Of a stretch of 64,000 nucleotides of DNA, positions 10,621 through 50,474 are shown piece by piece. A program made the translations under genes and the position numbers. Location of the stretch: positions 1 through 64,000 of the forward strand of contig CANDMY010000006.1 of NCBI GenBank assembly GCA_947385945.1, written 5' to 3'. Under the pieces are notes generated by a model. The model made no database searches. It saw nothing but the letters and a program-made list of their open reading frames with translations, and had not been told where the DNA came from. This DNA is from an uncultured Clostridia bacterium (GTDB taxonomy: Bacteria > Bacillota > Clostridia > Lachnospirales > Lachnospiraceae). The first letter of the stretch is position 1, and every line of letters begins with the position of its first letter.

Positions 10621-10728
10621 CTTTTTTCGTCCTTTCTGGCATTTTCCAGTTTAACAGGTTATTGCTTTTATTCTAGCACAAGAATCCTAAGATTGCAAAG
10701 AAAAGATATAGGAATCCTAGTCGAAAAG

Positions 10729-10977
10729 TGGGGGGAGGACGCCAGAGTATGGCATTGCAGTACTGTTTCGCTCTACAGAAAGTAAGAAGCTCTAAGACTT
10801 CTGAATTTAGATGCATCCAACCGGACGGACCGGGGTGCAATTCGCCCGTGCTGCGGGCTAAACACACCCCTTTTTTTGCCATTCAAGAATGGCAAAAAAT
10901 CCTCATGAATCGACAGAAGTCTAAAAGCTTCTAACTTTCCTCCGAAGTCACAGTACTGCAATGCCATACTCTGGCTG
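10729..10977 (-). repeat. F1 structured repeat, copy C (reverse orientation)
   Basis: Reverse complement carries the F1 core. Arms 'tatggcattgcagtact' and 'agtactgcaatgccata' are perfectly complementary. Confidence 0.85.
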
Positions 10978-11070
10978 TCTTTTTCCACAATATAGGTATT
11001 CTTTTTTCTCTTTTTTTGTTTTTTTAATCTATCAAGGAAGTAGCGGAGCGAATTCCGAATTTCCTTTGAC

Positions 11071-14824: not shown

Positions 14825-14965
14825 ACTCCTAAACTACATCCTTCCTAATTCAAAATCCCATCTCTATCCACACACCAAAAAATATCATACCACTCCTCAT
14901 TCCACCAAACCACCCCAAAATTCCCTCCCATTCCCACCTGAATAAAAAATAAAAATCAAATCTAT

Positions 14966-15232
14966 CGCCAGAAAGAACCAGCTGGAGTTTGGAAGCCCTT
15001 TCTCTATGCAGTGACTTCGGAGAAAAGTTAGAAAGTCTTATGCCTCTGTCGATCTCCTAGGATTTTTGCCATCTTCTGATGGCAAAAAAGGGGTGTGTTT
15101 AGCCCGCTGCACGGGCGAATTGCACCCCGGTCCGTCCGGTTGGATATATTTTCATTCAGAGGCATAAGACTTTCTTACTTTTCGGAGAGCGGAACAGCAT
15201 AGAGAAAGGGCTTCCAAACTCCAGCGTCCTCT
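14966..15232 (+). repeat. F1 structured repeat, copy D
   Basis: F1 core with the variant 'gccatcttctgatggc' central hairpin. Its arms 'gtttggaagccctttctctatgca' and 'agcatagagaaagggcttccaaac' are complementary and related to the arms of copy B. Confidence 0.85.
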
Positions 15233-15360
15233 ACACCATCCCCCAGCTTTTCCATCCTAATATCCACACATCATCCCCCAACTTTCCCATCTCAATATCC
15301 ACACCATCCCCCCAACTTTCCCATCTCAGTATCCACACCATTCCCATTCCCCTCAACCTT
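15233..15360. repeat. C-rich tandem repeat of about three copies of a roughly 33-bp unit, 'catcccccaactttcccatctcaatatccacac', appended 3' of F1 copy D.
   Basis: Direct reading. Confidence 0.7.
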
Positions 15361-15372
15361 CACTTTTTTCTA

Positions 15373-24832: not shown

Positions 24833-25026
24833 TGTGGTTCTCCTTACCCATAGTGTTACAAACCTGCTTCGATTAATCGAACATATATACGATTGTAGCA
24901 GATTTTCTATTATCTGACAAGACCTTAATTCGAATCGATCGAATAGTAATCTGATTGTTTATAGTGAGCCAGAAAATTATTTATAGTGAGCCGAATGATT
25001 GTTTATGGCGATCCGGACGATTGCAT

Positions 25027-25150
25027 CTGCTGGTGAATCCCTGCTGGGGCCGTTTGCACTAAGGCTTCCTCGCAGCGGACACATAAGGCACGAAAGTACC
25101 GTGCCTAAGTGCCGGCGGGAAGCAATACCCCTGCAGGGATTCACCAGCAG
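25027..25150 (+). repeat. F2 structured repeat, copy 1. Core is 'tgctggggccgtttgcactaaggcttcctcgcagcggacacataaggcacgaaa..accgtgcctaagtgccggcgggaagcaatacccctgca', closed by the variable stem 'ctgctggtgaatccc/gggattcaccagcag'.
   Basis: Core repeated at 25785, 36195 and 36751(-). An internal hairpin 'aggcacg-aaa..ac-cgtgcct' is visible. Confidence 0.85.
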
Positions 25151-25192
25151 CTACAATCTGTCTATCTCAACGGAATGTTTGATAGAATCGCT

Positions 25193-25459: not shown

Positions 25460-25667
25460 GGATTTAATTTAACCTCCTAAATCTTTAAATTAAAAACATA
25501 TCGCCTATTTTATATAAAAATGCGGAGAGAAATCCATATTTTTCCTCTCCGATCTATTTACCATCTCTATTATAAAAGCAGCCTTAAAATTTTTCAACTA
25601 TATTTTATTATAAATATAATATTCCATGTAAAACATAGGAAAATTTTCACTAAAGCATAAAAATCAA

Positions 25668-25770
25668 AGGAAATTCGCAATCCGCTTCACTACTCGCTCA
25701 TAACCTCATAGCCACTATCGCAACTTTTCAATGAAAGTCTAAAGTCTGCACTTCCTTGATGAGGTTAAAA
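25668..25770 (+). repeat. F3 structured repeat, copy 2 (internally deleted)
   Basis: Shares F3 5' part 'ggaaattcgcaatccgct..ctcataacctcatagc..ctatcgca' and 3' end 'cttccttgatgaggttaaa'. Confidence 0.7.
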
Positions 25771-25784
25771 TAAGGTACAAAACA

Positions 25785-25923
25785 GCTCGCCCTAAGGGAT
25801 CTTTCTTTGCTGGGGCCGTTTGCACTAAGGCTTCCTCGCAGCGGACACATAAGGCACGAAAAGACCGTGCCTAAGTGCCGGCGGGAAGCAATACCCCTGC
25901 AAAGAAAGATCCCTTAGGGCGAG
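25785..25923 (+). repeat. F2 structured repeat, copy 2. Closing stem is 'gctcgccctaagggatctttcttt / aagaaagatcccttagggcgagc'.
   Basis: Identical core. A different, perfectly complementary closing stem. Confidence 0.85.
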
Positions 25924-26031
25924 CGTCAGGACTACCCAAAACAATTCTAAATCAAACAATCCCAAACCACTCCAAACAATCGAAACTCTACAATAAATGA
26001 AAAACTTAGTATAAAATATATTATACCTATT

Positions 26032-28443: not shown

Positions 28444-28663
28444 CCTTCTTACCTCTCACTCTATTCATAAAATTTACAAAAAATTCCCGTCCTGCTTTCC
28501 TCTCTTCTCCTAATATATCACGAAATCTGCATTTTCACAACCTGATTTTACATTTTCACAATGCAAATTTCCTTTTTCAACCTAACAATACCCATTCCCA
28601 AGCAGCTCCATCTCGCCTTTTATTCTTTTTATCAATAAAAATACAGGAAAAAACAGCCAGAGT

Positions 28664-28916
28664 TGGGAAGCGATTCTTTTTTGCTGTGACTTCGGAGAAA
28701 AGTTAGAACGTCTTATGCCTCTGTCGATCCACTAGGATTTTTTGCCATTTCCAAATGGCAAAAAAAGGCACGTGTTTAGCCTCCTGCAGAGGCGAATTGC
28801 GTGCCGATCCGTCCGGTTAGATGCACCTAAACTCAGAGGCATTAGCCGTTCTTACTTTTCGGAGAGCGGAACAGCAAAAAAGAATCGCTTCCAAACTCTA
28901 GCGTCCCCCTCCCCCC
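28664..28916 (+). repeat. F1 structured repeat, copy E (divergent core with compensatory changes)
   Basis: Core helix 'ggggtgtg..cgaattgcacccc' becomes 'ggcacgtg..cgaattgcgtgcc'. Helix 'gcccgctgcacgggc' becomes 'gcctcctgcagaggc'. Central hairpin 'gccattcccgaatggc' becomes 'gccatttccaaatggc'. Pairing is preserved in all three. Confidence 0.85.
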
Positions 28917-28941
28917 ATTTCCCTACAAAACCCCCATTTCC

Positions 28942-30456
28942 CTACAAAACCCCCGTATCACTATCCACCTCAAACCAAAATTCCACCCCATTTTCCAAAT
29001 TTCGAACCCCATATTCTTTATGATGAGCTTCCATAATTGCCTTTACAATCGACAGCCCAATCCCGCTCCCTCCATACTCTCTTGTCCGTGCCTTATCCAC
29101 CTTATAAAACTTAATCCAAACCTTCCCCAACTCCTCCTCTGGAATCGGATTCCCTGTATTAAAAACAGACACCCTTACCGTATGCTCATTTTTTGTCAAA
29201 GAAACAACGATCTGCTTCTCTCCGCCTGCATAGTGAATCGCATTACTAATATAATTCGTAACCACTTCCTCTAACTGATACTCATCTCCCCATACAAAAA
29301 CCGGCTCCCGCTGCTCGAATAAAACCGTAATCTTGTCCTGCCTGCATAAAATTTCAACCGACTGAATCACACCCAAAATCAATGCCGTCAAATCAAACCG
29401 CTCCATCGTAATCTGTTCCTGTCCAAATTCTAACTGATTTAAAGTCAGCAGTTTCTTTACCATTTTATTCATTTTATCTGCTTCATCTATAATTACTTCA
29501 CAGTAAAACTCCCTGCTTTCTGCATCCTCATTAATCCCTTCTGCAAGCCCCTCCGCATATCCCTGAATCAATGCAATCGGCGTTTTTAATTCATGAGATA
29601 CATTCGATAAAAATTCCTTCCTTATCTCCTCCATCTGAATCTTCTGCTCAATATCCTTTTGCAGTTCATTATTTGCCGACTTTAATTCAGAAATCGTATG
29701 CTCTAACTTTTTGGAAAGTTCATTCATACTCTGCCCTAACACACCGATTTCATCTTTATCGTGCCGCTCATACTTTGCCTCAAAATCTAAATTAGACATT
29801 TTCCCCGATAATTCTGCCAATTCCAACAAAGGTCTAGTCAAACGCCTAGTAATCGTAATCGAAATCATAATAGCTAAAATACTGACAATTCCTCCCACAT
29901 AGGCAACAAAACGATTGGAAATCTCTACACTTTCCTTTATACTTTCCACCGGAATACGAAGCAGCATATATTCTCTGGTATTAGGCTCCACCCCGAATAA
30001 TTCCAAAAAATTAGTCGAATAGCGACTATCTTTATTTCGAAAAATACTATAATCCTCTTCCCTTTTTAAAGTCACCGCACTATTCTCAATTCCAAATAAA
30101 TAAGGCATTACCAAATCCTGCAGGGTCTGTACATTGTGCACATTATAATAGACTGGTTTTAACATTCCTGTATTGGCATCCAAAATAATAAATGTAATAT
30201 TGGATTTTTGGCACAACCCCTCTAACTCCAATGCTACCTCATCCGCCTTTTTATTACTCTGTACCAATTCACACATACTCACATAAGCATTTTCCAATTT
30301 TGTCTGTTTACTAATTAAATAATAATCTTCTAAAAATCGATTATTAATCAATAAAAGCAAAAAAACTGTACCAAAAGTCGCAAATAACATTAATGCTATT
30401 ATTTTGGTTCGAATAGAATATTGTATTTTCCCTACTAAACCTGCTATTTTACTCAT
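28942..30456 (-). CDS. Sensor histidine kinase (TM, HAMP, HisKA, HATPase_c)
   Basis: H-box 'SHELKTP'. N, G1 and G2 boxes 'GGSGIGLSIVKAI'. Two TM helices flank an extracytoplasmic domain. Confidence 0.85.
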   Translation of the reverse strand: MSKIAGLVGKIQYSIRTKIIALMLFATFGTVFLLLLINNRFLEDYYLISKQTKLENAYVSMCELVQSNKKADEVALELEGLCQKSNITFIILDANTGMLKPVYYNVHNVQTLQDLVMPYLFGIENSAVTLKREEDYSIFRNKDSRYSTNFLELFGVEPNTREYMLLRIPVESIKESVEISNRFVAYVGGIVSILAIMISITITRRLTRPLLELAELSGKMSNLDFEAKYERHDKDEIGVLGQSMNELSKKLEHTISELKSANNELQKDIEQKIQMEEIRKEFLSNVSHELKTPIALIQGYAEGLAEGINEDAESREFYCEVIIDEADKMNKMVKKLLTLNQLEFGQEQITMERFDLTALILGVIQSVEILCRQDKITVLFEQREPVFVWGDEYQLEEVVTNYISNAIHYAGGEKQIVVSLTKNEHTVRVSVFNTGNPIPEEELGKVWIKFYKVDKARTREYGGSGIGLSIVKAIMEAHHKEYGVRNLENGVEFWFEVDSDTGVL

Positions 30457-31248: not shown

Positions 31249-31863
31249 TTAATTTTGTGAATCTTTCCCGAAAAGTTCCTTTTCTTTTGCCTTTAATTCT
31301 TTTTCCCTTTCTTTTAATTCTGCTTCTTTCTGCTGTAAATCTTTTTCCCATGATATATATTTATTAATCAGTGTATTCTCATAATTTAATATATTGACAT
31401 GATTACTATTTAGTGTAATATAAGCCATAATCAATATAGCAGCAATCAACAAAATATTTAAAATAAGGGCATGATAATATTTCTGCCGATAATAAAGACT
31501 TGTATTTTTTTTATTTTTCTGAGCAATTCGTTCTTCTTTTTCCGCTCTGTCCCTCTCTCTTACCCGCAGCCACTGTTCATCCTCTAACTGAAATCCATAT
31601 ATTCTCTGATTCTCGATCTCTTTTGCCTCTAACAACCGCTCTTTCCATTCCCTTAAAAATTTTGTCCCAACTTCTGTTTTCAATATATTGCGTTCTGCCA
31701 ATTTATTATATACAGCAAGTGCAACCTCCATATTTTCCATATCATTTTGCGACAAAATATACTGTATCCCTTCCCACTCTTTTTTTGCCTTTTTCGCTTC
31801 CACCGGATCTCTGTAAGTAATCCCGTAAATGGTTTCTCCTTTAGCCATACCGCTTTTCTCCAT
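31249..31863 (-). CDS. Hypothetical membrane protein (single TM, coiled-coil C-terminus)
   Basis: ORF with a central hydrophobic helix 'ALILNILLIAAILIMAYITL'. No recognised domain. Confidence 0.5.
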   Translation of the reverse strand: MEKSGMAKGETIYGITYRDPVEAKKAKKEWEGIQYILSQNDMENMEVALAVYNKLAERNILKTEVGTKFLREWKERLLEAKEIENQRIYGFQLEDEQWLRVRERDRAEKEERIAQKNKKNTSLYYRQKYYHALILNILLIAAILIMAYITLNSNHVNILNYENTLINKYISWEKDLQQKEAELKEREKELKAKEKELFGKDSQN

Positions 31864-31873
31864 TTCTTTTAGT

Positions 31874-32036
31874 CAAAGGAAATAAGGAAATTCGGAATCT
31901 GCTCCTTCCTCATAATCCTATGCTGCTATCGCTGCTTGTCAGATGGAACTTGCCCCCAACTGACACAAGGAAGTCCCCCAACCCACCGCTTTCGCCTTCA
32001 CGGCTTAGAAGCAGAGGACCTCCTTGATAGGTTAAA
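31874..32036 (+). repeat. F3 structured repeat, copy 3 (diverged)
   Basis: Shares F3 hairpins 'gctgctatcgctgc' and 'aagtccccc..', and the 3' end 'ccttgataggttaaaa'. Confidence 0.75.
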
Positions 32037-32085
32037 AAACACAAAAGCCCCGGATCTCTCCGGGACTTACTCTGCCGCAAAATCA

Positions 32086-36194: not shown

Positions 36195-36334
36195 GCAGGT
36201 AGCATAGAGAGATTCTTTGCTGGGGCCGTTTGCACTAAGGCTTCCTCGCAGCGGACACATAAGGCACGAAAAGACCGTGCCTAAGTGCCGGCGGGAAGCA
36301 ATACCCCTGCAAAGAATCTCTCTATGCTACCCGC
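36195..36334 (+). repeat. F2 structured repeat, copy 3. Closing stem is 'gcaggtagcatagagagattcttt / aaagaatctctctatgctacccgc'.
   Basis: Identical F2 core. Confidence 0.85.
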
Positions 36335-36336
36335 TG

Positions 36337-36545
36337 TTTCGTTCCCCCTAGAAATAATGCCTCATAAACATTTTTATTCTACCTGTTGGTTTATTCCTCC
36401 TGGAAACAATACCTCACAAACATTTTTACTCTGCCTATTAACTTGTTCCTCCTGGAAATGATACTTCACAAAAATATTTTATTCGGTCTGCTGGTTTATT
36501 CCTCCTAAAAACAACGCCCCGTAAAAATTCTCTACTCCGACTGTT
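36337..36545. repeat. Tandem repeat of about 3.5 copies of a roughly 60-bp unit ('...ttattcctcctggaaacaatacctcacaaacatttttactctgcctgttgg...')
   Basis: Direct reading. Degenerate periodicity of about 59-62 bp. Confidence 0.75.
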
Positions 36546-36546
36546 G

Positions 36547-36678
36547 GAATTCAAAAGAAATTTGTAATCCTATGCTGCTATCGCAGCTTGTCAAATAGGG
36601 CTTGTACCCCACCTGCCCCCAACCCACCGCTTTCGCCTTGGCGGCTTAGAAGCGGGGGACTTCCTTGATGAGGTTAAA
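36547..36678 (+). repeat. F3 structured repeat, copy 4
   Basis: Contains 'gctgctatcgcagc' and 'cgccttggcggcttagaagcgggggacttccttgatgaggttaaa'. Confidence 0.8.
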
Positions 36679-36750
36679 CTATCTAAAATCACACAAAAAC
36701 GGTTTTAATCAACCAAAATACTGCGACTGTTCCGGTTGGAATATACAGCT

Positions 36751-36884
36751 GACACCACTGGATGAATCTCTGCAGGGGTATTGCTTCCCGCCGGCACTTA
36801 GGCACGGTCTTTTCGTGCCTTATGTGTCCGCTGCGAGGAAGCCTTAGTGCAAACGGCCCCAGCAGAGATTCATCCAGTGGTGTC
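36751..36884 (-). repeat. F2 structured repeat, copy 4 (inverted relative to copy 3). It is followed by a twice-repeated 'gatgtcagcgtccccccaaca'.
   Basis: Reverse complement of the F2 core. Closing stem 'gacaccactggatgaatctct / agagattcatccagtggtgtc'. Confidence 0.85.
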
Positions 36885-36962
36885 AGCGTCCCCCCAACAG
36901 AAAATCACCCAATGATGTCAGCGTCCCCCCAACATATATTCGTTTAAATTCAAATCATTCGC

Positions 36963-44104: not shown

Positions 44105-44227
44105 GAAATCCCTCCTTTGTTTATTCCAGTCAGCTATAAAAATTCTTATTTTCTATTATAACATACCATCTAAAAAGATACCACCTTTTCAGACAGCAGA
44201 AGAAACTCATATCCAAAAAAATTCCCC

Positions 44228-44470
44228 GGAAATAACGCCAGAGTACTTGAAAGGGAACTGTTCCGCTCTCCGAAAAGCAGAAGCTCTAAGACTTCTGAAT
44301 CTAGGCATATCCAACCGGACGGATCGGGGTGCAATTCGCCCGTACAGCGGGCTAAACACACCCCTTTTTTTGCCATTCGAGAATGGCAAAAAATCCTAGT
44401 GGATTGACAGAAGTCTAAGAGCTTCTAACTTTCCTCCGAAGTCACAGTTCCCTTTCAAGTACTCTGGCTG
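44228..44470 (-). repeat. F1 structured repeat, copy F (reverse orientation)
   Basis: Reverse complement carries the F1 core. Arms 'tacttgaaagggaact' and 'agttccctttcaagta' are complementary. Confidence 0.85.
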
Positions 44471-44965
44471 TATTGTCTCACAATCTACTTTTTTTCTCTT
44501 TGCTCCATTATATTCTTATTCTTTTTTGTTAAATTTCCTTCTTTCTTTTTTTATTAAAAATAATTTTAGAATTTTTGCATTGGTCAAAGCGGATTGCGAA
44601 TATCCGATTTGACTATCCCTATCAGACATTTCTCTATATCAGCCGTAATCATTTTATGCTTGTATTTTACACACCAAACAATATGATATTGGATGGAATA
44701 TACCTATCCACGTCCATGAGTCACTTCCATATAGAATCACCTCGTTATACAAACGATAATAGATGTATGTTGTTATATCAATTATTTTTAGCATTATTAC
44801 TTGAAATTTAATTAACATATGTGAGCAATTCATCCCACGACTAAATGCTCATGTACGGTAAAGAAACAAGAAACCGAAAACAAGAGATAGACCTCCAGCA
44901 CCACACTATTCCGAACCAAAGACCAAAAGACAAGCATGATGGAATCCCTCTCTCATTCCTTTATG

Positions 44966-45313
44966 TCAAAAAGATTTTCCGCTGTTTTCCGTTCCCCATT
45001 GACACATACTTTCCATAATGGGGAGGAGGGAACGTCCTTTATTTGAAAGACTATACTCAACTTTTGGCGGTATCTGCGGATATTCTTTACGGATAATAAG
45101 CCCGTCTGCTTCCAATGCCTTTAACTCTGTACTTAATGTTTTGTAGGTGATTGTTCCGATTTTTCGTTGTAGTTCGTTAAAACGTATTGTGTCGTATTCA
45201 ACGAGCCAATAGAGAATAACCAGCCGCCATTTTCCACCAATCATAGATAATGTATAGCCAAAAGGAGTATCAGTCAAAGAAACAATTCTCTTTTCAAATT
45301 TTTCCATGCTCAT
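44966..45313 (-). CDS. HxlR-family (MarR-like) transcriptional regulator
   Basis: 'GGKWRLVILYWL..RFNEL...ITYKTLSTELKALEADGLIIRKEYPQIPPKVEYSLS'. An AAGGAAAG RBS precedes the ATG at 45313. Confidence 0.8.
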   Translation of the reverse strand: MSMEKFEKRIVSLTDTPFGYTLSMIGGKWRLVILYWLVEYDTIRFNELQRKIGTITYKTLSTELKALEADGLIIRKEYPQIPPKVEYSLSNKGRSLLPIMESMCQWGTENSGKSF

Positions 45314-45424
45314 ATAGGTACTTTCCTTAAAGATAGTATTTGTCAAAAAAGTGCGTACTTGTCTTTTTGACATTGCGAATATAGAATAGCATAAAGAACG
45401 ATATTTAGCAAGGGAGTAAAAAGC

Positions 45425-46006
45425 ATGAAAAGAATAATGGTTATTTTAGGCGGCGGGCGTGTCAATGGAAATACGTCACAGTTAGCAGAAGCATTTATGA
45501 ACGGAGCTAAAGAAGCCGGACACCAAGTAGAGATGGTATCATTGAACAAACTGAATGTGAATGGCTGCATAGGCTGTAATGCCTGTCGCTATGGTAAATC
45601 TTGTGTACAAAAAGATGATTTTAATTCACTTGTTCCAAAGATAAAAACGGCGGATTTAATCGTATTTGCGTCACCTTTATATTTCTGGACTGTATCATCA
45701 AAAATTAAAGCATTTATTGAACGTTTTTACTGTATAGCAGAAAAAGACGAGAATCCACCTTTGGGACGATATGAGAAATATCCCATACATGATTGTGCTT
45801 TGCTTATGACTTCCGCTGATAACTTTTTTTGGACGTTTGAGCAGGCTGTTTCTTACTACAAGTTTACATTGATAAACTATATCGGTTTTCACAATAAAGG
45901 TATGTTGCTTGCTGGTGGTTGTGGTGAAACAAACGGGAAACCTCAGATTTCAAAAACCACTCATTTAAGGGAAGCATATGAATTTGGAAAAGCAATTTAC
46001 GAATAA
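45425..46006 (+). CDS. NAD(P)H-dependent FMN reductase / flavodoxin-like oxidoreductase
   Basis: 'MKRIMVILGGGRVNGNTSQLAEAF' and 'ADLIVFASPLYFW'. Divergently transcribed from the HxlR regulator, a classic pairing. Confidence 0.7.
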   Translation: MKRIMVILGGGRVNGNTSQLAEAFMNGAKEAGHQVEMVSLNKLNVNGCIGCNACRYGKSCVQKDDFNSLVPKIKTADLIVFASPLYFWTVSSKIKAFIERFYCIAEKDENPPLGRYEKYPIHDCALLMTSADNFFWTFEQAVSYYKFTLINYIGFHNKGMLLAGGCGETNGKPQISKTTHLREAYEFGKAIYE

Positions 46007-46026
46007 ATGAAAAGGGGCTTTGAAAA

Positions 46027-46344
46027 ATGATGAAGAAATGTAAATTAACTATCTTGAAAACAACGCTTCAAGAAGATTTAGCAAAGGAATATGGCGTTCC
46101 CAATTTAAGCATATGTCCTTTGATGAAAGAAGGACAGGTATTCTATGCCGACTATGCGAAGCCAGAGGGCTTTTGTGACGAAGCATGGAAAGCTATCTAT
46201 CAGTATGTATTTGCATTGGCAAATGGTGCAGAGGGTTGGTACTCTGATGATTGGATTGACCCCAAGCATAAAGATGTGGCAATTTGTTCATGCAATGACG
46301 GATTAAGACCTGTAATTATCAAAGTTGAGCGAGTTAATGAATAA
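46027..46344 (+). CDS. Hypothetical small Cys-rich protein (105 aa), co-directional with the flavoreductase
   Basis: ORF 20 bp downstream of the preceding gene. No confidently recognised domain. Confidence 0.5.
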   Translation: MMKKCKLTILKTTLQEDLAKEYGVPNLSICPLMKEGQVFYADYAKPEGFCDEAWKAIYQYVFALANGAEGWYSDDWIDPKHKDVAICSCNDGLRPVIIKVERVNE

Positions 46345-46412
46345 TCGGAAGATTATATAAATGCAACCGTAAACCATGCAACGCCCTATGTGGAAGAAAG
46401 AGGGAATCGTTT

Positions 46413-46961
46413 ATGCCCTGCACAGAAGCATACAGAAAACACATCATGTATACGTTCAATAGCTATTGCAAGACCGTTATACGCTTTGCGGCTATTAACG
46501 CATGGCGTGACAGGAGCAGACGGCGGCAAAAGGAAATATCCCTTGAATACCTCACAGAAGAAAAGTTTTACCCTTTAGGCACAACAGACGAATATTTTGA
46601 AGCACCCTATAAAGAATACCCCGTTACGATATGCGGTCAAACTTGTATTGCGGGAGCTGCCGCCAGCTTCAAAGACCGTAACGAATATATCTCCCGCCTT
46701 TGCAGCTTCCCCTTGCTTATCCTTGATGATTTCGGCATGGAGCGTGGCACGGAATACGGCTTAGAGCAAATCTATAACGTGGTTGACAGCCGATACCGCA
46801 GCGGCAAGCCGTTAATCGTGACAACGAACCTCACGCTGGAAGAATTGCAGAACCCGGAGGACACCGCCCACGCCCGCATTTATGACCGCCTTACAGAAAT
46901 GTGCTGCCCCGTCTGCATTACCGGGGAGAATTTCAGAAAAACCAAAGCACAGGCGGACTAA
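46413..46961 (+). pseudogene. Mobile-element relic: IstB/DnaC-like ATPase C-terminal fragment fused to an unrelated N-terminal stretch
   Basis: 'PLLILDDFGMERGTEYGLEQIYNVVDSRYRSGKPLIVTTNLTLEEL' is the Walker B and sensor region of IstB/DnaC helper ATPases. No Walker A is present. The locus is GC-rich. Confidence 0.55.
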
Positions 46962-46988
46962 AAACACATTACCCGGCGTGAGCTGAAA

Positions 46989-47561
46989 TTATTTTCGTCC
47001 AAAATACCTTCGGACTTTGCTTTTGTAGGCGTTGTACTCTGCCCCAAATGCCTTTGACAAGAACTTTTCTTCTTGTAGTATTTGCAGATGAAGCATTGTC
47101 ATGGCAAAAACAGAAAACACCAGCAAAACCCAGTTAAAGGCTATAAGCAGCAGACCTATATAAACACAATCAAAGGCTAAAAAGGCGGGATTTCTGCTTA
47201 TGCGGTAAATCCCGCCGGTAATGATTTCTGTTTTATCGTTTTCTGCTATGCCAGCCCGCCAACTGTCTTTCATTGTTACGACTGATACAGTAAAAAGAAT
47301 ATCTCCAATAAATCCAAGAACCACACCAACAGCAACAAGCGTTTGCGGCAGAAATGGAGGTGCAAAGAACAGGCTGAGGACTTCCGCCACAACCACGGAA
47401 TAAGTAGCTATTTTCATAGCCAGCTCAATGTAGAATACCTTTGTTTTCTGCTTGCCTTTTGCTATCTGGTCTGTCTGTATGCCTTTTCTTTTTTGCAATA
47501 TCATCTTGCTGATGTAGACTGCATAAAACACGGCAAGTATCAGTAATCCTATAATTTTCAT
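46989..47561 (-). CDS. Isoprenylcysteine carboxyl methyltransferase (ICMT) family membrane methyltransferase
   Basis: Multi-TM protein with the C-terminal motif 'GGIYRISRNPAFLAF' and 'E..FG..Y..Y'. Confidence 0.7.
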   Translation of the reverse strand: MKIIGLLILAVFYAVYISKMILQKRKGIQTDQIAKGKQKTKVFYIELAMKIATYSVVVAEVLSLFFAPPFLPQTLVAVGVVLGFIGDILFTVSVVTMKDSWRAGIAENDKTEIITGGIYRISRNPAFLAFDCVYIGLLLIAFNWVLLVFSVFAMTMLHLQILQEEKFLSKAFGAEYNAYKSKVRRYFGRK

Positions 47562-47650
47562 TATGTTTCCTTTCTCATGGGAACAGTGTTTTTTAATAAG
47601 ACCAGTATATCACACAAAAGCAGATTTTTCCACATTAGATAGCCCGTGTC

Positions 47651-48319
47651 TTGACGGAACAGCAGACCCCCACGCCGGGGACGCTGGAATACCGCCGGAC
47701 GGGAAGCACACGCCGCTACCACCCCGGCTATGAGTGCAAGTGGGCGACAAACACCGTGGCGCATATCCTTGAAAACCGGGAATACACGGGCTGCCTTGTG
47801 AACTTCAAGACCGAGAAAGTGTCCTACAAGGTAAAGCAGAGCATGGAGAACCCCGAAGAAAAACAGGCAGTCTTTGAGAACCACCACGAGCCTATCATAG
47901 ACCGTGACACATGGGAGCGTGTGCAGGAGCTACGCAAGCAGCGCAAACGCCCTAACCGCTATGATGAAGTGGGCTTGTTCTCCGGCATACTCTTTTGTGC
48001 CGACTGCGGCAGCGTCATGTACCAGCAGAGGTATCAAACGGACAAGCGGCGGCAGGACTGCTACATATGCGGCAGCTACAAGAGGCACACCCGTGACTGT
48101 ACGGTGCACTTTATCCGCACCGACCTCTTGACCGTGGGAATGACCGAGAACCTACGGAAAGTCACCAGCTACGCCGCCAAGCACGAAGCACGGTTTATGA
48201 AGCTGTTGACCGAGCAGACCGAGGACGGGAGCAAACACCGGAACGCCGCCAAGAAGAAAGAGCTGGAAGCGGCAGAAAAGCGGATTGCGGAACTCTCCGC
48301 TATCTTCAAGCGGCTGTAG
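47651..48319 (+). pseudogene. C-terminal fragment of a large serine recombinase (recombinase domain, zinc beta-ribbon, coiled coil). The N-terminal catalytic resolvase domain is absent.
   Basis: 'TVAHILENREYTGCLV', Zn ribbon 'CADCGSVMY...CYICGSYKRHTRDC' and a C-terminal coiled coil. No catalytic Ser domain upstream. Local GC is markedly higher than in the flanks. Confidence 0.65.
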
Positions 48320-48682
48320 GAGGACAGCGTGGCGGGACACATATCGGACGAGCGTTTCACAGAGCTTTCGGCAGGCTACGAAGCCGAGCAAAAGTATATA
48401 TAAAATCCATATTTTCATCAAAGTTAAGCTGATACATTCTGAAGATAACCGGGAAATCTTTTGGCTGCCATTGTTCTTCATAGGAATAGCAGTATTTCAT
48501 TCCTACCCGATTATATCAACCAGCTTTTTTCCGATTCCCTGTCTTCTGTATTCTTTCTTAACCGTTGCGTGATAGATAAAACCTTTGTGCCTGTCATGTC
48601 TATCCATTATGTATCCATAAATCCTATATTTTTTCAAAATCTTTCATATCCATATTGTCATTATTACCGTTCTTCTTATGCT

Positions 48683-49183
48683 CTATTTATTCATTTTAAA
48701 TTTTTCCAGCCGATAATGCTGCTCATCATCCAATTCTTTTATTCCGTTTTTATATTCATACCCCTTTTTCCGATAAAATTCTACTGCAGTAATAGATGCG
48801 GGAATTTCTATTCTCTCTGCCCTTAAAAATAATTCATCGGATTCAAGAGTATCAATAATATAACTACCGATCCCCTGCCTATGAATTTCCGGCAGCACAA
48901 AAATAGTAAGCAAAATACTTTCTGTAAGGCTTCCCCAAAAACTTGATATAGAACCAACACCCACAATGTTATTTTCATTCCAAAATACATACACATGTGC
49001 ATGTTCTGCCACACCCTTAAACCAATTTACATCATGCGTAGCAGAGAGTATATCCACCGCTCTTTCCCCGTAATCTTTCACGTTGACTTCCTTGAAATTT
49101 CTATGAATCAGCTTGACAATTTCTTCCGCATCTTCTTCACGATAAGGCTTAGCAATAACCTCTGTTCCATTTGATAATTTCAT
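48683..49183 (-). CDS. GNAT-family N-acetyltransferase
   Basis: Acetyl-CoA binding motif A 'HRQGIGSYII'. A GAAAGGAG RBS precedes the ATG at 49183. Confidence 0.75.
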   Translation of the reverse strand: MKLSNGTEVIAKPYREEDAEEIVKLIHRNFKEVNVKDYGERAVDILSATHDVNWFKGVAEHAHVYVFWNENNIVGVGSISSFWGSLTESILLTIFVLPEIHRQGIGSYIIDTLESDELFLRAERIEIPASITAVEFYRKKGYEYKNGIKELDDEQHYRLEKFKMNK

Positions 49184-49563
49184 AAAAAACTCCTTTCCAA
49201 ACAAAAAAACACTAAACATACAATATGTCCAGTGCACTTCTAAAACCATCGGCTATTGCAAATATAATTACAACTTACACCTACTAATTTATATGCACAG
49301 ACATATCAGACCTACCTGCGTAACTGTGCATCCAATCAAAAACACAATTACTTCTAAGTACGTCTGTCATACATGTACATATCATTCATTGTAAAATGTA
49401 AGTTCTGCATTTTCACGTTCTCCTAAACTTTTTTAATAACTTACCATAATTCTATTTATATGTCAAGAAATATTTCTGAAACGAACCATATAACTTTATT
49501 TTTGATTTTAAAATATATATCATTCATTCCATATCAACCCCAAACCAACAGTCAAATCGGATA

Positions 49564-49716
49564 TTCGCAATCCGCTTTGCTACTTGCTCATAACCTCATA
49601 GCTTCTATCGCAGCTTTTCAGTGGGAGTCTGCACTCCCACTGAAACAAAGAAGTCCCAACCCACCGCTTTCGCCTTGGCGGTTTAGAAGCGGGGGACTTC
49701 CTTGATGAGGTTAAAC
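49564..49716 (+). repeat. F3 structured repeat, copy 5 (near-identical to copy 1)
   Basis: 'aatcggatattcgcaatccgctttgctacttgctcataacctcatagc...cttgatgaggttaaa'. Confidence 0.85.
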
Positions 49717-49866
49717 AACCCTTTACCTGCCTAATACCAAACTTCAAAGAAAATAATCCTATTCCAAAAAACCAAATAAACTTTTACACTATCTTTGAAA
49801 AAAGAAAAGCAAAGTAACAAAGAAGACATTCTCTTTCCCCTCTGCATTTCTTACCTTTAAAATATC

Positions 49867-49946
49867 AAAGGAAATTCGGAATCCGCTCCGCTGCCTCCTC
49901 ATAATCCTATCCTGCGTCAAATAGGACTTCCTTAATAGATTAAAAA
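49867..49946 (+). repeat. F3 structured repeat, copy 6 (short or deleted form)
   Basis: 'ggaaattcggaatccgctccgct..ctcataatcctatcctgcg...cttccttaatagattaaaa'. Confidence 0.6.
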
Positions 49947-49999
49947 CAAAAAACTCTACAGATGAATGAATCAACTCTAACCTTACAGGCAGGAAAAGA

Positions 50000-50256
50000 C
50001 AGCCAGAGTGGGAAAGCCATTTCTTCCCGCTGTGACTTCGGAGGAAAGTTAGAATGTCTTATGCTTCTGTCGATCCACTAGGATTTTTTGCCATTCTCGA
50101 ATGGCAAAAAAAGGGGTGTGTTTAGCCCGCAGCACGGGCGAATTGCACCCCGGTCCGTCCGGCTGGATGCACCTATCCCCAGAAGCATTAGACATTCTTA
50201 CTTTCCGCAGAGCGGAACAGCGGGAAGAAATGGCTTTCCCACTCTAGCGTCCTCCC
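50000..50256 (+). repeat. F1 structured repeat, copy G
   Basis: F1 core. Arms 'tgggaaagccatttcttcccgct' and 'agcgggaagaaatggctttccca' are complementary. Confidence 0.85.
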
Positions 50257-50345
50257 CTTCCCCACTCTAGCGTCCTCCCCTTCCCCACTCCAGCGTTCTC
50301 CCCTTCCCCGCTCCAACATCCTCCCCCCAATCCCCTCACTCTCAC
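50241..50345. repeat. C-rich tandem repeat, '(c)cactctagcgtcctccccttcc' in 3-4 copies, extending the 3' terminus of F1 copy G
   Basis: Direct reading. Confidence 0.75.
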
Positions 50346-50474
50346 ACCCAAACTTTTCCCTCACCAGTCATATTTTCCCCTCCCCCTACATACCTTGTAA
50401 CAAAACTTAAATTTTTGTGTACTGACCGACGCATAAATCAGGCAGTACACTTATCTGCAAAGGGGATCTCAAAT

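Follow-up and report, generated by a model that had tools for sequence, protein, structure and literature searches.

How do short tandem arrays come to lie against the end of a long hairpin repeat, and do they tell how that repeat spreads? The question is raised by 64,000 nucleotides of DNA from an uncultured bacterium of the Lachnospiraceae (GCA_947385945.1, contig CANDMY010000006.1, positions 1 to 64,000), which we call the window. The window carries two families of hairpin repeats, F1 and F2, and a C-rich tandem array begins at position 15233, directly behind an F1 copy. A reading made from the letters alone (the sequence-only reading) had described such arrays behind three F1 copies and one F2 copy. 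It had explained them by iterative duplication of the 3′ terminus, through replication slippage or a rolling-hairpin-type mechanism, and had taken them as a possible clue to propagation. Our analysis supports terminal duplication by slippage and gives no support to the rolling hairpin. The arrays are probably local, minisatellite-like tandem duplications that arose by replication slippage at the base of a stable hairpin repeat.

Tandem arrays adjoin F1 and F2 termini in the window

F1 is a structured palindromic repeat of ∼270–290 nt that is intergenic and interspersed. The window holds seven copies (A to G) in 64 kb. Each copy is read here on its canonical strand, from the 5′ end (head) to the 3′ end (tail, GCGTCC). 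The canonical strand is the + strand in five copies and the − strand in two (C and F). F2 is a hairpin of ∼140 nt with a core unrelated to that of F1. Copies of both families were scored with nhmmer, and arrays were called with Tandem Repeats Finder (TRF).

Copy D (14961–15231, + strand; 292.7 bits; repeat families D2/D4, inverted pair I4) ends in ...CTCCAGCGTCC. It is followed by array D at 15233–15345 (+ strand; TRF period 34, 3.3 copies, 84% match, score 152), which is 48% C and has the F1 tail on one side and the stop codon of an M32 peptidase gene (15373) on the other. The array is identical in four other assemblies. Behind copy E (28644–28911, + strand), array E (28912–28954, + strand) consists of 2.3 copies of the 19-nt unit CCCCCATTTCCCTACAAAA at 100% TRF match, and overlaps the stop codon of a histidine kinase gene (28942). 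Array G (50234–50326, + strand; TRF period 23, 4.0 copies, 90% match; family D11) overlaps the end of copy G (49990–50257, + strand; 315.6 bits). Its unit CTTCCCCACTCTAGCGTCCTCCC starts 18 nt inside the F1 3′ arm and consists of the terminal 18 nt of copy G followed by TCCCC. F2 copy 4 (36748–36887, + strand; 177.6 bits; inverted pair I8, also found by the core pattern) is a 140-nt hairpin ending in ...GGTGTCAGCGTCC. A duplication of TRF period 35 and 2.2 copies spans its junction (36857–36934, + strand), and TGTCAGCGTCCCCCCAACA is present twice, 35 nt apart. All four arrays thus abut, or start inside, the ...AGCGTCC end of their element. What the sequence-only reading had described here was borne out: TRF arrays directly abut copies D, E and G, the unit of copy G is the duplicated 3′ terminus, and the terminus of F2 copy 4 is duplicated.

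Arrays also lie on the other side of elements. Copy A (185–452, + strand) has an array on its 5′ side, at positions 1–177/198. This array has a 66-nt unit in 2.7 or more copies and is truncated where the window begins. It adjoins the head of copy A directly and is found again in MAG locus L051 (see below). A 22-nt array (24952–25023) abuts F2 copy 1, an inverted repeat at 25019–25158 (− strand), and a 52-nt array (36342–36514) abuts F2 copy 3 at 36195–36334 (− strand; family D8). Copy B (4814–5083, + strand) has no adjoining array.

When random 40-nt intergenic zones were sampled, ∼4.5% touched an array. Arrays at three of five same-orientation copies therefore give a binomial p of ∼1e-3. Other samples, assembled independently, also contain arrays D, E and G, so these are not assembly artefacts.

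Arrays are associated with both ends of F1

F1 loci were collected with a pattern of 20 specified bases in the core. The sample comprised 113 8-kb blocks of the metagenome-assembled genome (MAG) CAJUEI01 plus the window. It covers ∼800 kb of the species, about a quarter of the genome. CAJUEI01 is an uncultured mouse-gut Lachnospiraceae and is ∼99% identical to the window where the two overlap. The counts given for F1 (n = 110, 104, 94 and 91) refer to copies among the matches listed (at least 120 loci) plus the window; the 91 are the copies with 200 nt of flank on either side. Gene context was taken from crude open reading frame (ORF) calls. At least 110 full-length copies were recognized by nhmmer among the listed loci and the window, all between ORFs, at a frequency of ∼1 per 9 kb. 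Among the matches listed, almost all fell in CAJUEI01 and one further Lachnospiraceae MAG also carried F1. Metagenome contigs gave only nine F1 matches, and viral contigs none.

A 40-nt zone touched an array on the tail side of 16/110 copies and on the head side of 14/110. A permutation null gave 4.9±2.1, and the highest count among 2000 draws was 12. Array density was 3.7 per kb on the tail side and 3.2 per kb on the head side, compared with 0.39 per kb in other intergenic-like DNA. Depending on the score threshold, an array lay within 25 nt of the tail in 13–16 of 91 copies and within 25 nt of the head in 14–28. Fifteen further arrays were found beside F1 ends in the MAG. The genome-wide association between F1 ends and arrays is therefore real and about three-fold. 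It belongs to both ends, so that the claim of arrays at the 3′ terminus holds for the tail but does not set it apart from the 5′ end.

Some units copy the resident terminus and are probably added beside the element

To ask how the units relate to the element, we compared them with the terminus of the copy that they adjoin. The last 16 nt of a copy recurred within 150 nt downstream (at least 12/16 matches) in 8/94 copies, compared with 0.8 for shuffled sequence and 1 for the left flank. Such terminus-containing arrays begin within the 3′ arm, 2–30 nt from its end, and their periods are 15–67 nt. Over all arrays the units measure 13–67 nt and the breakpoints vary between 30 nt inside and 21 nt outside the arm, with no fixed nick site. 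Head-side arrays often take in the left leader or the left module of the element.

In the junction-spanning arrays, identity of the units to the resident terminus mostly falls outward. It was 0.96, 0.87 and 0.78 in successive units of array G, 0.93 and 0.83 at locus L119, and 0.83 and 0.61 at L042. It was flat at L087 (0.81, 0.81) and reversed at L048 (0.73, 0.87). In most outer units GCGTCC no longer begins with GCG, which has been replaced by GCA, ACG or ACA. From the outward decay it follows that new units arise beside the element, or that selection keeps only the resident terminus.

One array differs between strains by a whole unit. For array E, the window and ERZ13404108 show two units and GCA_947089095.1 shows one; the 560-nt alignment is near-identical apart from a gap that measures exactly 19 nt. 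Array E alone was polymorphic. The strain comparison that the sequence-only reading had proposed thus showed a copy-number difference at E and none at D and G. Together with the recurrence of the terminus and the outward fall of identity, the difference at E supports iterative terminal duplication by slippage.

A comparison of strains over the F2 region gave clusters of single-nucleotide polymorphisms (SNPs) and no change in unit number. Relative to locus L137, the SNPs cluster in the F2 copy 4 duplication (36860–36900) and in the 52-nt array (36370–36410); 5 of the 24 strain SNPs in the ∼1.3-kb F2 spacer fall within 7 nt. The clusters suggest gene conversion or recurrent mutation inside repeats.

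The array side follows the G-rich strand

Strand asymmetry is very strong in this DNA. Outside an island at ∼44–48 kb, 2-kb windows have a GC skew of about −0.1 to −0.46, with the + strand C-rich. Intergenic DNA shares the skew (11.6% G against 25% C on the + strand), and nearly all genes lie on the − strand. Most F1 copies have their canonical strand on the C-rich strand.

Tail-side arrays were found at 14/61 copies whose canonical strand is the C-rich strand and at 1/30 copies on the G-rich strand (p=0.017). Head-side arrays showed the opposite trend, with 9/61 and 10/30, respectively. When all 91 copies are read on the G-rich strand, 24 have an array upstream of the hairpin and 10 have one downstream (p=0.016); for junction-spanning arrays the corresponding counts are 8 and 1. 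The array side follows the G-rich strand of the genome and not the polarity of the element.

The arrays, which the sequence-only reading had called C-rich, are 48–58% C, compared with 25% in intergenic DNA of the window. C-richness does not belong to the F1 end as such, however: the flank at 10–100 nt contains 34% C in C-rich-oriented copies and 10% C in G-rich-oriented copies. Because C content depends on orientation, C-richness reflects strand skew plus the CCTCCCC tail of one F1 subfamily, the a-type.

A proposed slippage model

We propose the following course of events. A replication fork moving along the G-rich (leading) strand would meet the hairpin and stall at, or just inside, the outer stem. 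The nascent 3′ end could then unpair and re-anneal tens of bases back on a short C-run/G-run microhomology, such as the TCCCC...TCCCC on either side of ACTCTAGCGTCC. The stretch would be copied again, and one unit would be added beside the element, on the side where the fork arrives. After repeated rounds, the newest unit would be next to the element and the older, outer units would decay, mainly by the change of GCG to GCA, ACG or ACA. The G-runs possibly help stalling.

This model accounts for the enrichment at both ends, the variable units that cross the junction, the proximal growth, the whole-unit polymorphism and the dependence of the array side on the strand. In Firmicutes, the G-rich strand is generally the leading strand. 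Related behavior is known from other hairpin repeats. Tandem repeats of a REPIN plus its flank are the commonest higher-order arrangement in Pseudomonas fluorescens SBW25 (PMC3116915), and palindromic REP dimers have been discussed as a cause of replication stalling (PMC3733652).

Several points weigh against the model. The F1 terminus is not recognizable in the units of arrays D and E, which could predate the element; array D was considered as a decayed F1 terminus, and the similarity was too weak. The side bias (p≈0.02) is confounded with subfamily (a-type or b-type) and with gene context. Arrays D and G have a constant length in every assembly that spans them, but the strain look-up required an identical protein and so returned near-identical strains. 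G-quadruplex motifs beside the tails may be under selection, or they may stall the fork in place of the hairpin. Fork stalling and microhomology slippage are steps that we infer and did not observe. The G-rich strand is assumed to be the leading strand here from skew and gene orientation, with no origin of replication located.

Structure and age of F1 and F2

The 5′ part of F1 begins with an optional left module, CCTCTAYGGATGAATGAATCAAC, followed by the leader CAGGAAAAGACA in a-type copies or AGATTGTGAGACAATACA in b-type copies. A 32-bp outer stem (GCCAGAG.../...CTCTRGC) encloses a conserved, asymmetric internal loop with TTCGGAG on either side, then a second stem of 20 bp and a core of ∼110 nt with three hairpins. 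The tail is GTCC, to which a-type copies add CCTCCCC. F1 and F2 share a foot, 5′ (G)ACAG-stem...stem-CGTCC 3′, with a bulged A. The conserved left module, CCTCTATGGATGAATGAATCAAC, was also read by eye for a promoter, and no convincing −35/−10 pair was present on either strand.

F1 is predicted to fold very stably, with a minimum free energy (MFE) of about −146 to −151 kcal/mol and z scores of −12 to −13. In copy D the arms are 97% complementary (MFE −151 kcal/mol, z −13.3). Stem covariation is massive: all four Watson-Crick pairs occur at many positions, and pairing is 94–100%. The core hairpins show compensatory double changes in a sub-lineage of ∼20 copies, and in copy E the two stems of the core hairpin have each changed in a compensatory way. 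Taken alone, the 32-nt arms are weakly palindromic (MFE −6.35 compared with −5.06 for shuffled arms; 53/78 below the shuffle mean). Copies with their canonical strand on the G-rich strand have a ratio of G·T wobbles to A·C mismatches of 97:5, compared with 55:41 for copies on the C-rich strand. This excess hints that the canonical strand is preferred for folding, although mutation bias confounds the comparison.

The median identity of an F1 copy to its nearest relative is 0.90, which indicates that the copies are old, and they show no sign of recent activity. Between nearest relatives, both sides of a stem pair differ in 461 cases and one side in 295.

The remaining copies in the window are as follows. 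Copy C (10728–10994, − strand) is b-type, has its canonical strand on the G-rich strand, and its tail lies 108 nt upstream of a gene start. Copy F (44226–44485, − strand) is also b-type and has a degenerate tail, GGCGTTA. F2 has at least 15 copies in the loci. In F2 copy 2 (25774–25937) the core is inverted relative to the ACAG/CGTCC foot, compared with the ∼14 other F2 copies, and the flip looks like an inversion between the 31-nt arms.

A scan of the window with Rfam 15 gave matches at the gathering score only for tmRNA and two tRNAs, and none for F1 or F2. Permissive Rfam scans of F1 and F2 returned generic hairpin and miRNA noise only. Nothing relevant was found in the literature on miniature inverted-repeat transposable elements (MITEs) of Lachnospiraceae, and no description of F1 was found in the literature searched.

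Some further features were seen beside these elements. The F1 core contains CGTCCGGTTGGA, for example at 15108–15125, where the − strand reads CCAACCGGACGGACCGG. The same string is the F2 3′ end (CGTCCGG) joined to the F2 5′ leader CCGGTTGGA; it may be a protein-binding motif common to both families, or a sequence that resembles a junction. At loci L023, L040, L081 and L083 an F1 variant has ∼55 extra nt in the middle of the core, and the nhmmer match splits in two. This longer variant is the form found in a second Lachnospiraceae species (CBFFYP01). A third interspersed family of ∼110–190 nt occurs at 2028–2189, 25659–25767, 31857–32038, 36565–36679, 49549–49716 and 49841–49904. It has a hairpin GGAAGTCCCC...GGGGGACTTCC and the end CTTGATGAGGTTAAA, and often lies at the head side of F1. 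Within it, 49559–49595 gives a weak, sub-threshold match to Rfam Clostridiales-1 (17.6 bits; gathering score 48).

A separate island at ∼44500–49300 has higher GC and a skew near zero (∼0 only across ∼44–48 kb). It includes fragments of a large serine recombinase with Recombinase and Zn-ribbon domains (47651–48319) and a fragment of an IstB-like ATPase (46413–46961). The island looks like a decayed integrated mobile element.

Genomic placement of F1

In 100/110 copies a gene is found within 600 nt of the GCGTCC tail, and the head faces the interior of the intergenic region. The median distance from the tail is ∼45 nt to a stop codon and ∼120–170 nt to a start codon. The a-type copies are mostly found after stop codons, in antisense, and the b-type copies mostly before starts, in sense. 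Their strand biases are opposite, with 57:19 in favor of the C-rich strand for the a-type and 21:7 in favor of the G-rich strand for the b-type. In all 26 close pairs (<1.5 kb) the two heads face each other and the GCGTCC tails point away, and most pairs consist of an a-type and a b-type copy; examples are L064 3194–3950, L084 36–563 and L024 6831–7610.

At locus D, the spacer between the M32 peptidase gene and QueH (14825–15372) is 548 nt long with F1. In relatives whose flanking protein is 86%, 75% and 63% identical, the spacer lacks F1 and measures 131, 130 and 0 nt. The block of F1 and array is therefore lineage-specific. In the sister species (86% identical M32 protein; L131 4495–4625), synteny is kept, the F1 and array block is absent, and the 131-nt spacer contains an intrinsic terminator, GGAATCTTTGT...ACAAAGATTCC TTTTTT. 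F1 may have replaced a terminator at this locus. The spacers cannot be aligned, so the insertion boundaries are undefined. On the sense strand at locus D, an a-type hairpin is followed by TGTCTTTTCC.

No presence/absence polymorphism of F1 was seen between 99%-identical strains. No direct repeat of k=4–8 was found at any fixed boundary pair that would mark a target-site duplication; the best was 9/85 at k=4. No autonomous partner of F1 with an ORF was found, and partial F1 matches were nearly all contig-end truncations or the larger-core variant.

Other explanations of the arrays

Four other explanations were weighed. The first holds that the arrays are by-products of transposition, which we consider unlikely. 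An HUH enzyme (Y1, IS200/RAYT-like) or another end-recognizing enzyme would nick 3′ of the CGTCC foot, and a unit would be gained when re-initiation, aborted strand transfer or fold-back priming of a rolling-hairpin-like kind copied the terminus. That F1 and F2 share the ACAG/CGTCC foot while being otherwise unrelated fits such an enzyme. So do the GCGTCC usually carried by duplicated units, the appearance of new units beside the element, the flipped core of one F2 copy, and the lack of a target-site duplication, which is expected of IS200/IS605-type elements.

A remnant of a suitable gene is also present. A pseudogene fragment of an IS200-like Y1 transposase was identified at 44605–44730 (− strand) by tblastn, translation and Pfam (PF01797, 28.1 bits against a cutoff of 23, E 2.4e-6), ∼120 nt from the head of F1 copy F. 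The fragment, VYSIQYHIVWCVKYKHKMITADIEKCL, corresponds to the N-terminal ∼40 codons, has an in-frame stop just upstream, and breaks off where a D10-type repeat fragment, GTCAAATCGGATATTCGCAATCCGC, begins. However, no intact Y1 transposase was found by tblastn in the ∼800 kb of the species, with IS608 and IS200 TnpA queries.

The arrays themselves do not behave as nicking at one end would have them behave. The 5′ end is equally enriched, with unrelated units; breakpoints and periods vary; the array side tracks the genome strand and not the element end. In addition, the 104 F1 copies whose tail is recognizable gave no sign of flip-flop, and the age of the copies does not speak for recent activity. 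The same observations count against the rolling hairpin and against the idea that the arrays are a clue to propagation, both of which the sequence-only reading had put forward. Ordinary slippage duplication is the more likely explanation.

The second explanation, that the arrays are maintained by selection, is in our view decidedly unlikely. G-run repeats on the sense strand, as potential G-quadruplexes or protein sites just upstream of the hairpin at gene 3′ ends, might act together with the hairpin in termination or mRNA stabilization. On the G-rich strand, G-quadruplex motifs occur in 9/63 tail-side flanks with loops of 1–7 and in 18/63 with loops of 1–12, an enrichment of ∼20-fold. The head side has 1/63, and the intergenic background is 0.7–1.4%. 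Examples on a-type tail sides are 28909–28960 and 50255–50400 (− strand). The short distance of a-type tails past stop codons and the terminator of the sister species, at the place now held by F1 and its array, also suit a function. Against it, the outer units decay freely, G-runs included, array D has no G-quadruplex motif, arrays adjoin only ∼15–25% of copies, and one-unit strain variation suggests neutrality.

The third explanation reverses the order of events and seems to us very improbable. F1 would have chosen its targets, inserting beside or into C-rich/G-rich low-complexity tandem tracts at gene ends. The units of D and E, in which no F1 sequence is recognizable, the closeness of nearly all tails to a gene, which suggests a site preference, and the unusually C-rich tail-side flank (34% compared with 25%) are what this order would give. 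Eight or nine arrays, however, hold the copy-specific terminus of their own element and must postdate its insertion. Head-side arrays also differ strongly in composition, and the sister-species locus without F1 has an ordinary terminator and no array.

Long palindromes are prone to deletion. A last, hardly credible possibility is therefore that F1 copies inserted serially at one target, which their own C-rich tail recreated, and that deletions of the palindromes, a proneness discussed for such repeats (PMC3733652), left 3′ stubs in tandem. The stubs would be the terminal 15–30 nt plus tail, and the 67-nt unit at L060 does include ∼30 nt of the arm; yet exact periodicity would need repeated precise deletions with identical end points, the stubs match the variable arm of the resident copy and not other copies, and none of the 26 close pairs is head-to-tail. 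Replication slippage at the hairpin base remains the explanation that we prefer.

Comparison with known systems

The arrays resemble variable-number tandem repeats, or minisatellites, in their head-to-tail units of 13–67 nt, their whole-unit strain difference and the low-complexity microhomology at their borders. Unlike plain variable-number repeats, they are anchored to the foot of a long hairpin, often hold the last 7–30 nt of the element and contain units whose age increases in one direction. The phenomenon is an ordinary one, found here in a new setting. The arrays illustrate how stable hairpin repeats destabilize their surroundings and enlarge intergenic DNA, and they can be used as variable-number strain markers for uncultured mouse-gut Lachnospiraceae. 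In themselves they are of modest interest, and the elements are more interesting than the arrays.

With parvovirus-type rolling-hairpin replicons, F1 and F2 have terminal hairpins in common, and terminal duplication by fold-back priming is conceivable. However, F1 and F2 are chromosomal and interspersed, and no Rep/NS1-like gene was seen. Unlike rolling-hairpin replicons, F1 shows no flip/flop, with the tail at the same end in 104/104 copies, and the arrays occur at both ends with variable units. In F2, one of ∼15 copies is flipped.

MITEs, IS200/IS605-derived PATEs, ERIC, Correia and bcr1 elements are non-coding intergenic hairpin repeats present in dozens to hundreds of copies. Classical MITEs have target-site duplications and fixed terminal inverted repeats; IS200/IS605 derivatives have no target-site duplication and show a single-strand bias. 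F1 resembles MITEs and PATEs in its lineage-specific presence, with locus D empty in the sister species, and lacks target-site duplications as IS200/IS605 derivatives do. Unlike classical MITEs, it has neither these duplications nor a fixed terminal inverted repeat sequence, since its arms covary between copies. No autonomous partner sharing its ends was found, which also sets it apart from MITEs. In contrast to the single-strand bias of IS200/IS605 derivatives, the two F1 subfamilies have opposite orientation biases.

The closest likeness is to the REP/REPIN-RAYT system (Bertels & Rainey 2011, PMC3116915; Di Nocera et al. 2013, PMC3733652). In a REPIN the hairpin is made of two inverted REP units; F1 as a whole is a hairpin, and its arms by themselves are weakly palindromic. 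REPs are short imperfect palindromes of 20–40 nt with an unpaired, conserved tetranucleotide head, GTAG or CGTC, and a CGTC-tagged REP superfamily exists without a known transposase (PMC3733652). Like REPs and REPINs, F1 and F2 are high-copy, strictly extragenic hairpin palindromes with a short conserved motif at one end, here CGTCC. F1 shares with them frequent inverted pairs, a location mostly just downstream of genes, the persistence of old, diverged copies, and tandem repeats of element plus flank. The differences are in size and layout. REP stems are 8–20 bp, whereas F1 is 270–290 nt long with 32-bp outer arms, a second stem and a multi-hairpin core of ∼110 nt. The REP head is 5′ and unpaired, whereas CGTC(C) in F1 and F2 is 3′-terminal and paired with 5′ GAC(A)G. 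Unlike REPs, paired F1 copies lie 43–1100 nt apart with their tagged ends outward. F1 and F2 occur in a Firmicute, and REPs mainly in proteobacteria. A REPIN-RAYT system has a cognate single-copy RAYT (Y1 HUH) gene with the repeats on its flanks; no RAYT was found in the ∼800 kb, and the Y1 pseudogene fragment is the only trace there.

A bolder and, in our estimate, unlikely interpretation is that F1 and F2 are two cargo-less families of an undescribed REPIN-like system of Firmicutes. One structure-specific enzyme, possibly a domesticated Y1/HUH transposase, would recognize the shared foot (5′ GAC[A]G / CGTC 3′ plus the C-rich tail), and the proximally growing arrays would be scars of repeated nicking or abortive strand transfer. 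If this were true, the arrays would record the cleavage site and the activity of the element. If such an enzyme were found, REPIN/RAYT-type biology would extend to Clostridia, with units much larger and more structured. On the comparison as it stands, F1 and F2 look like a variant of REPIN-like repeats that is undescribed and unusual in its size and degree of structure.

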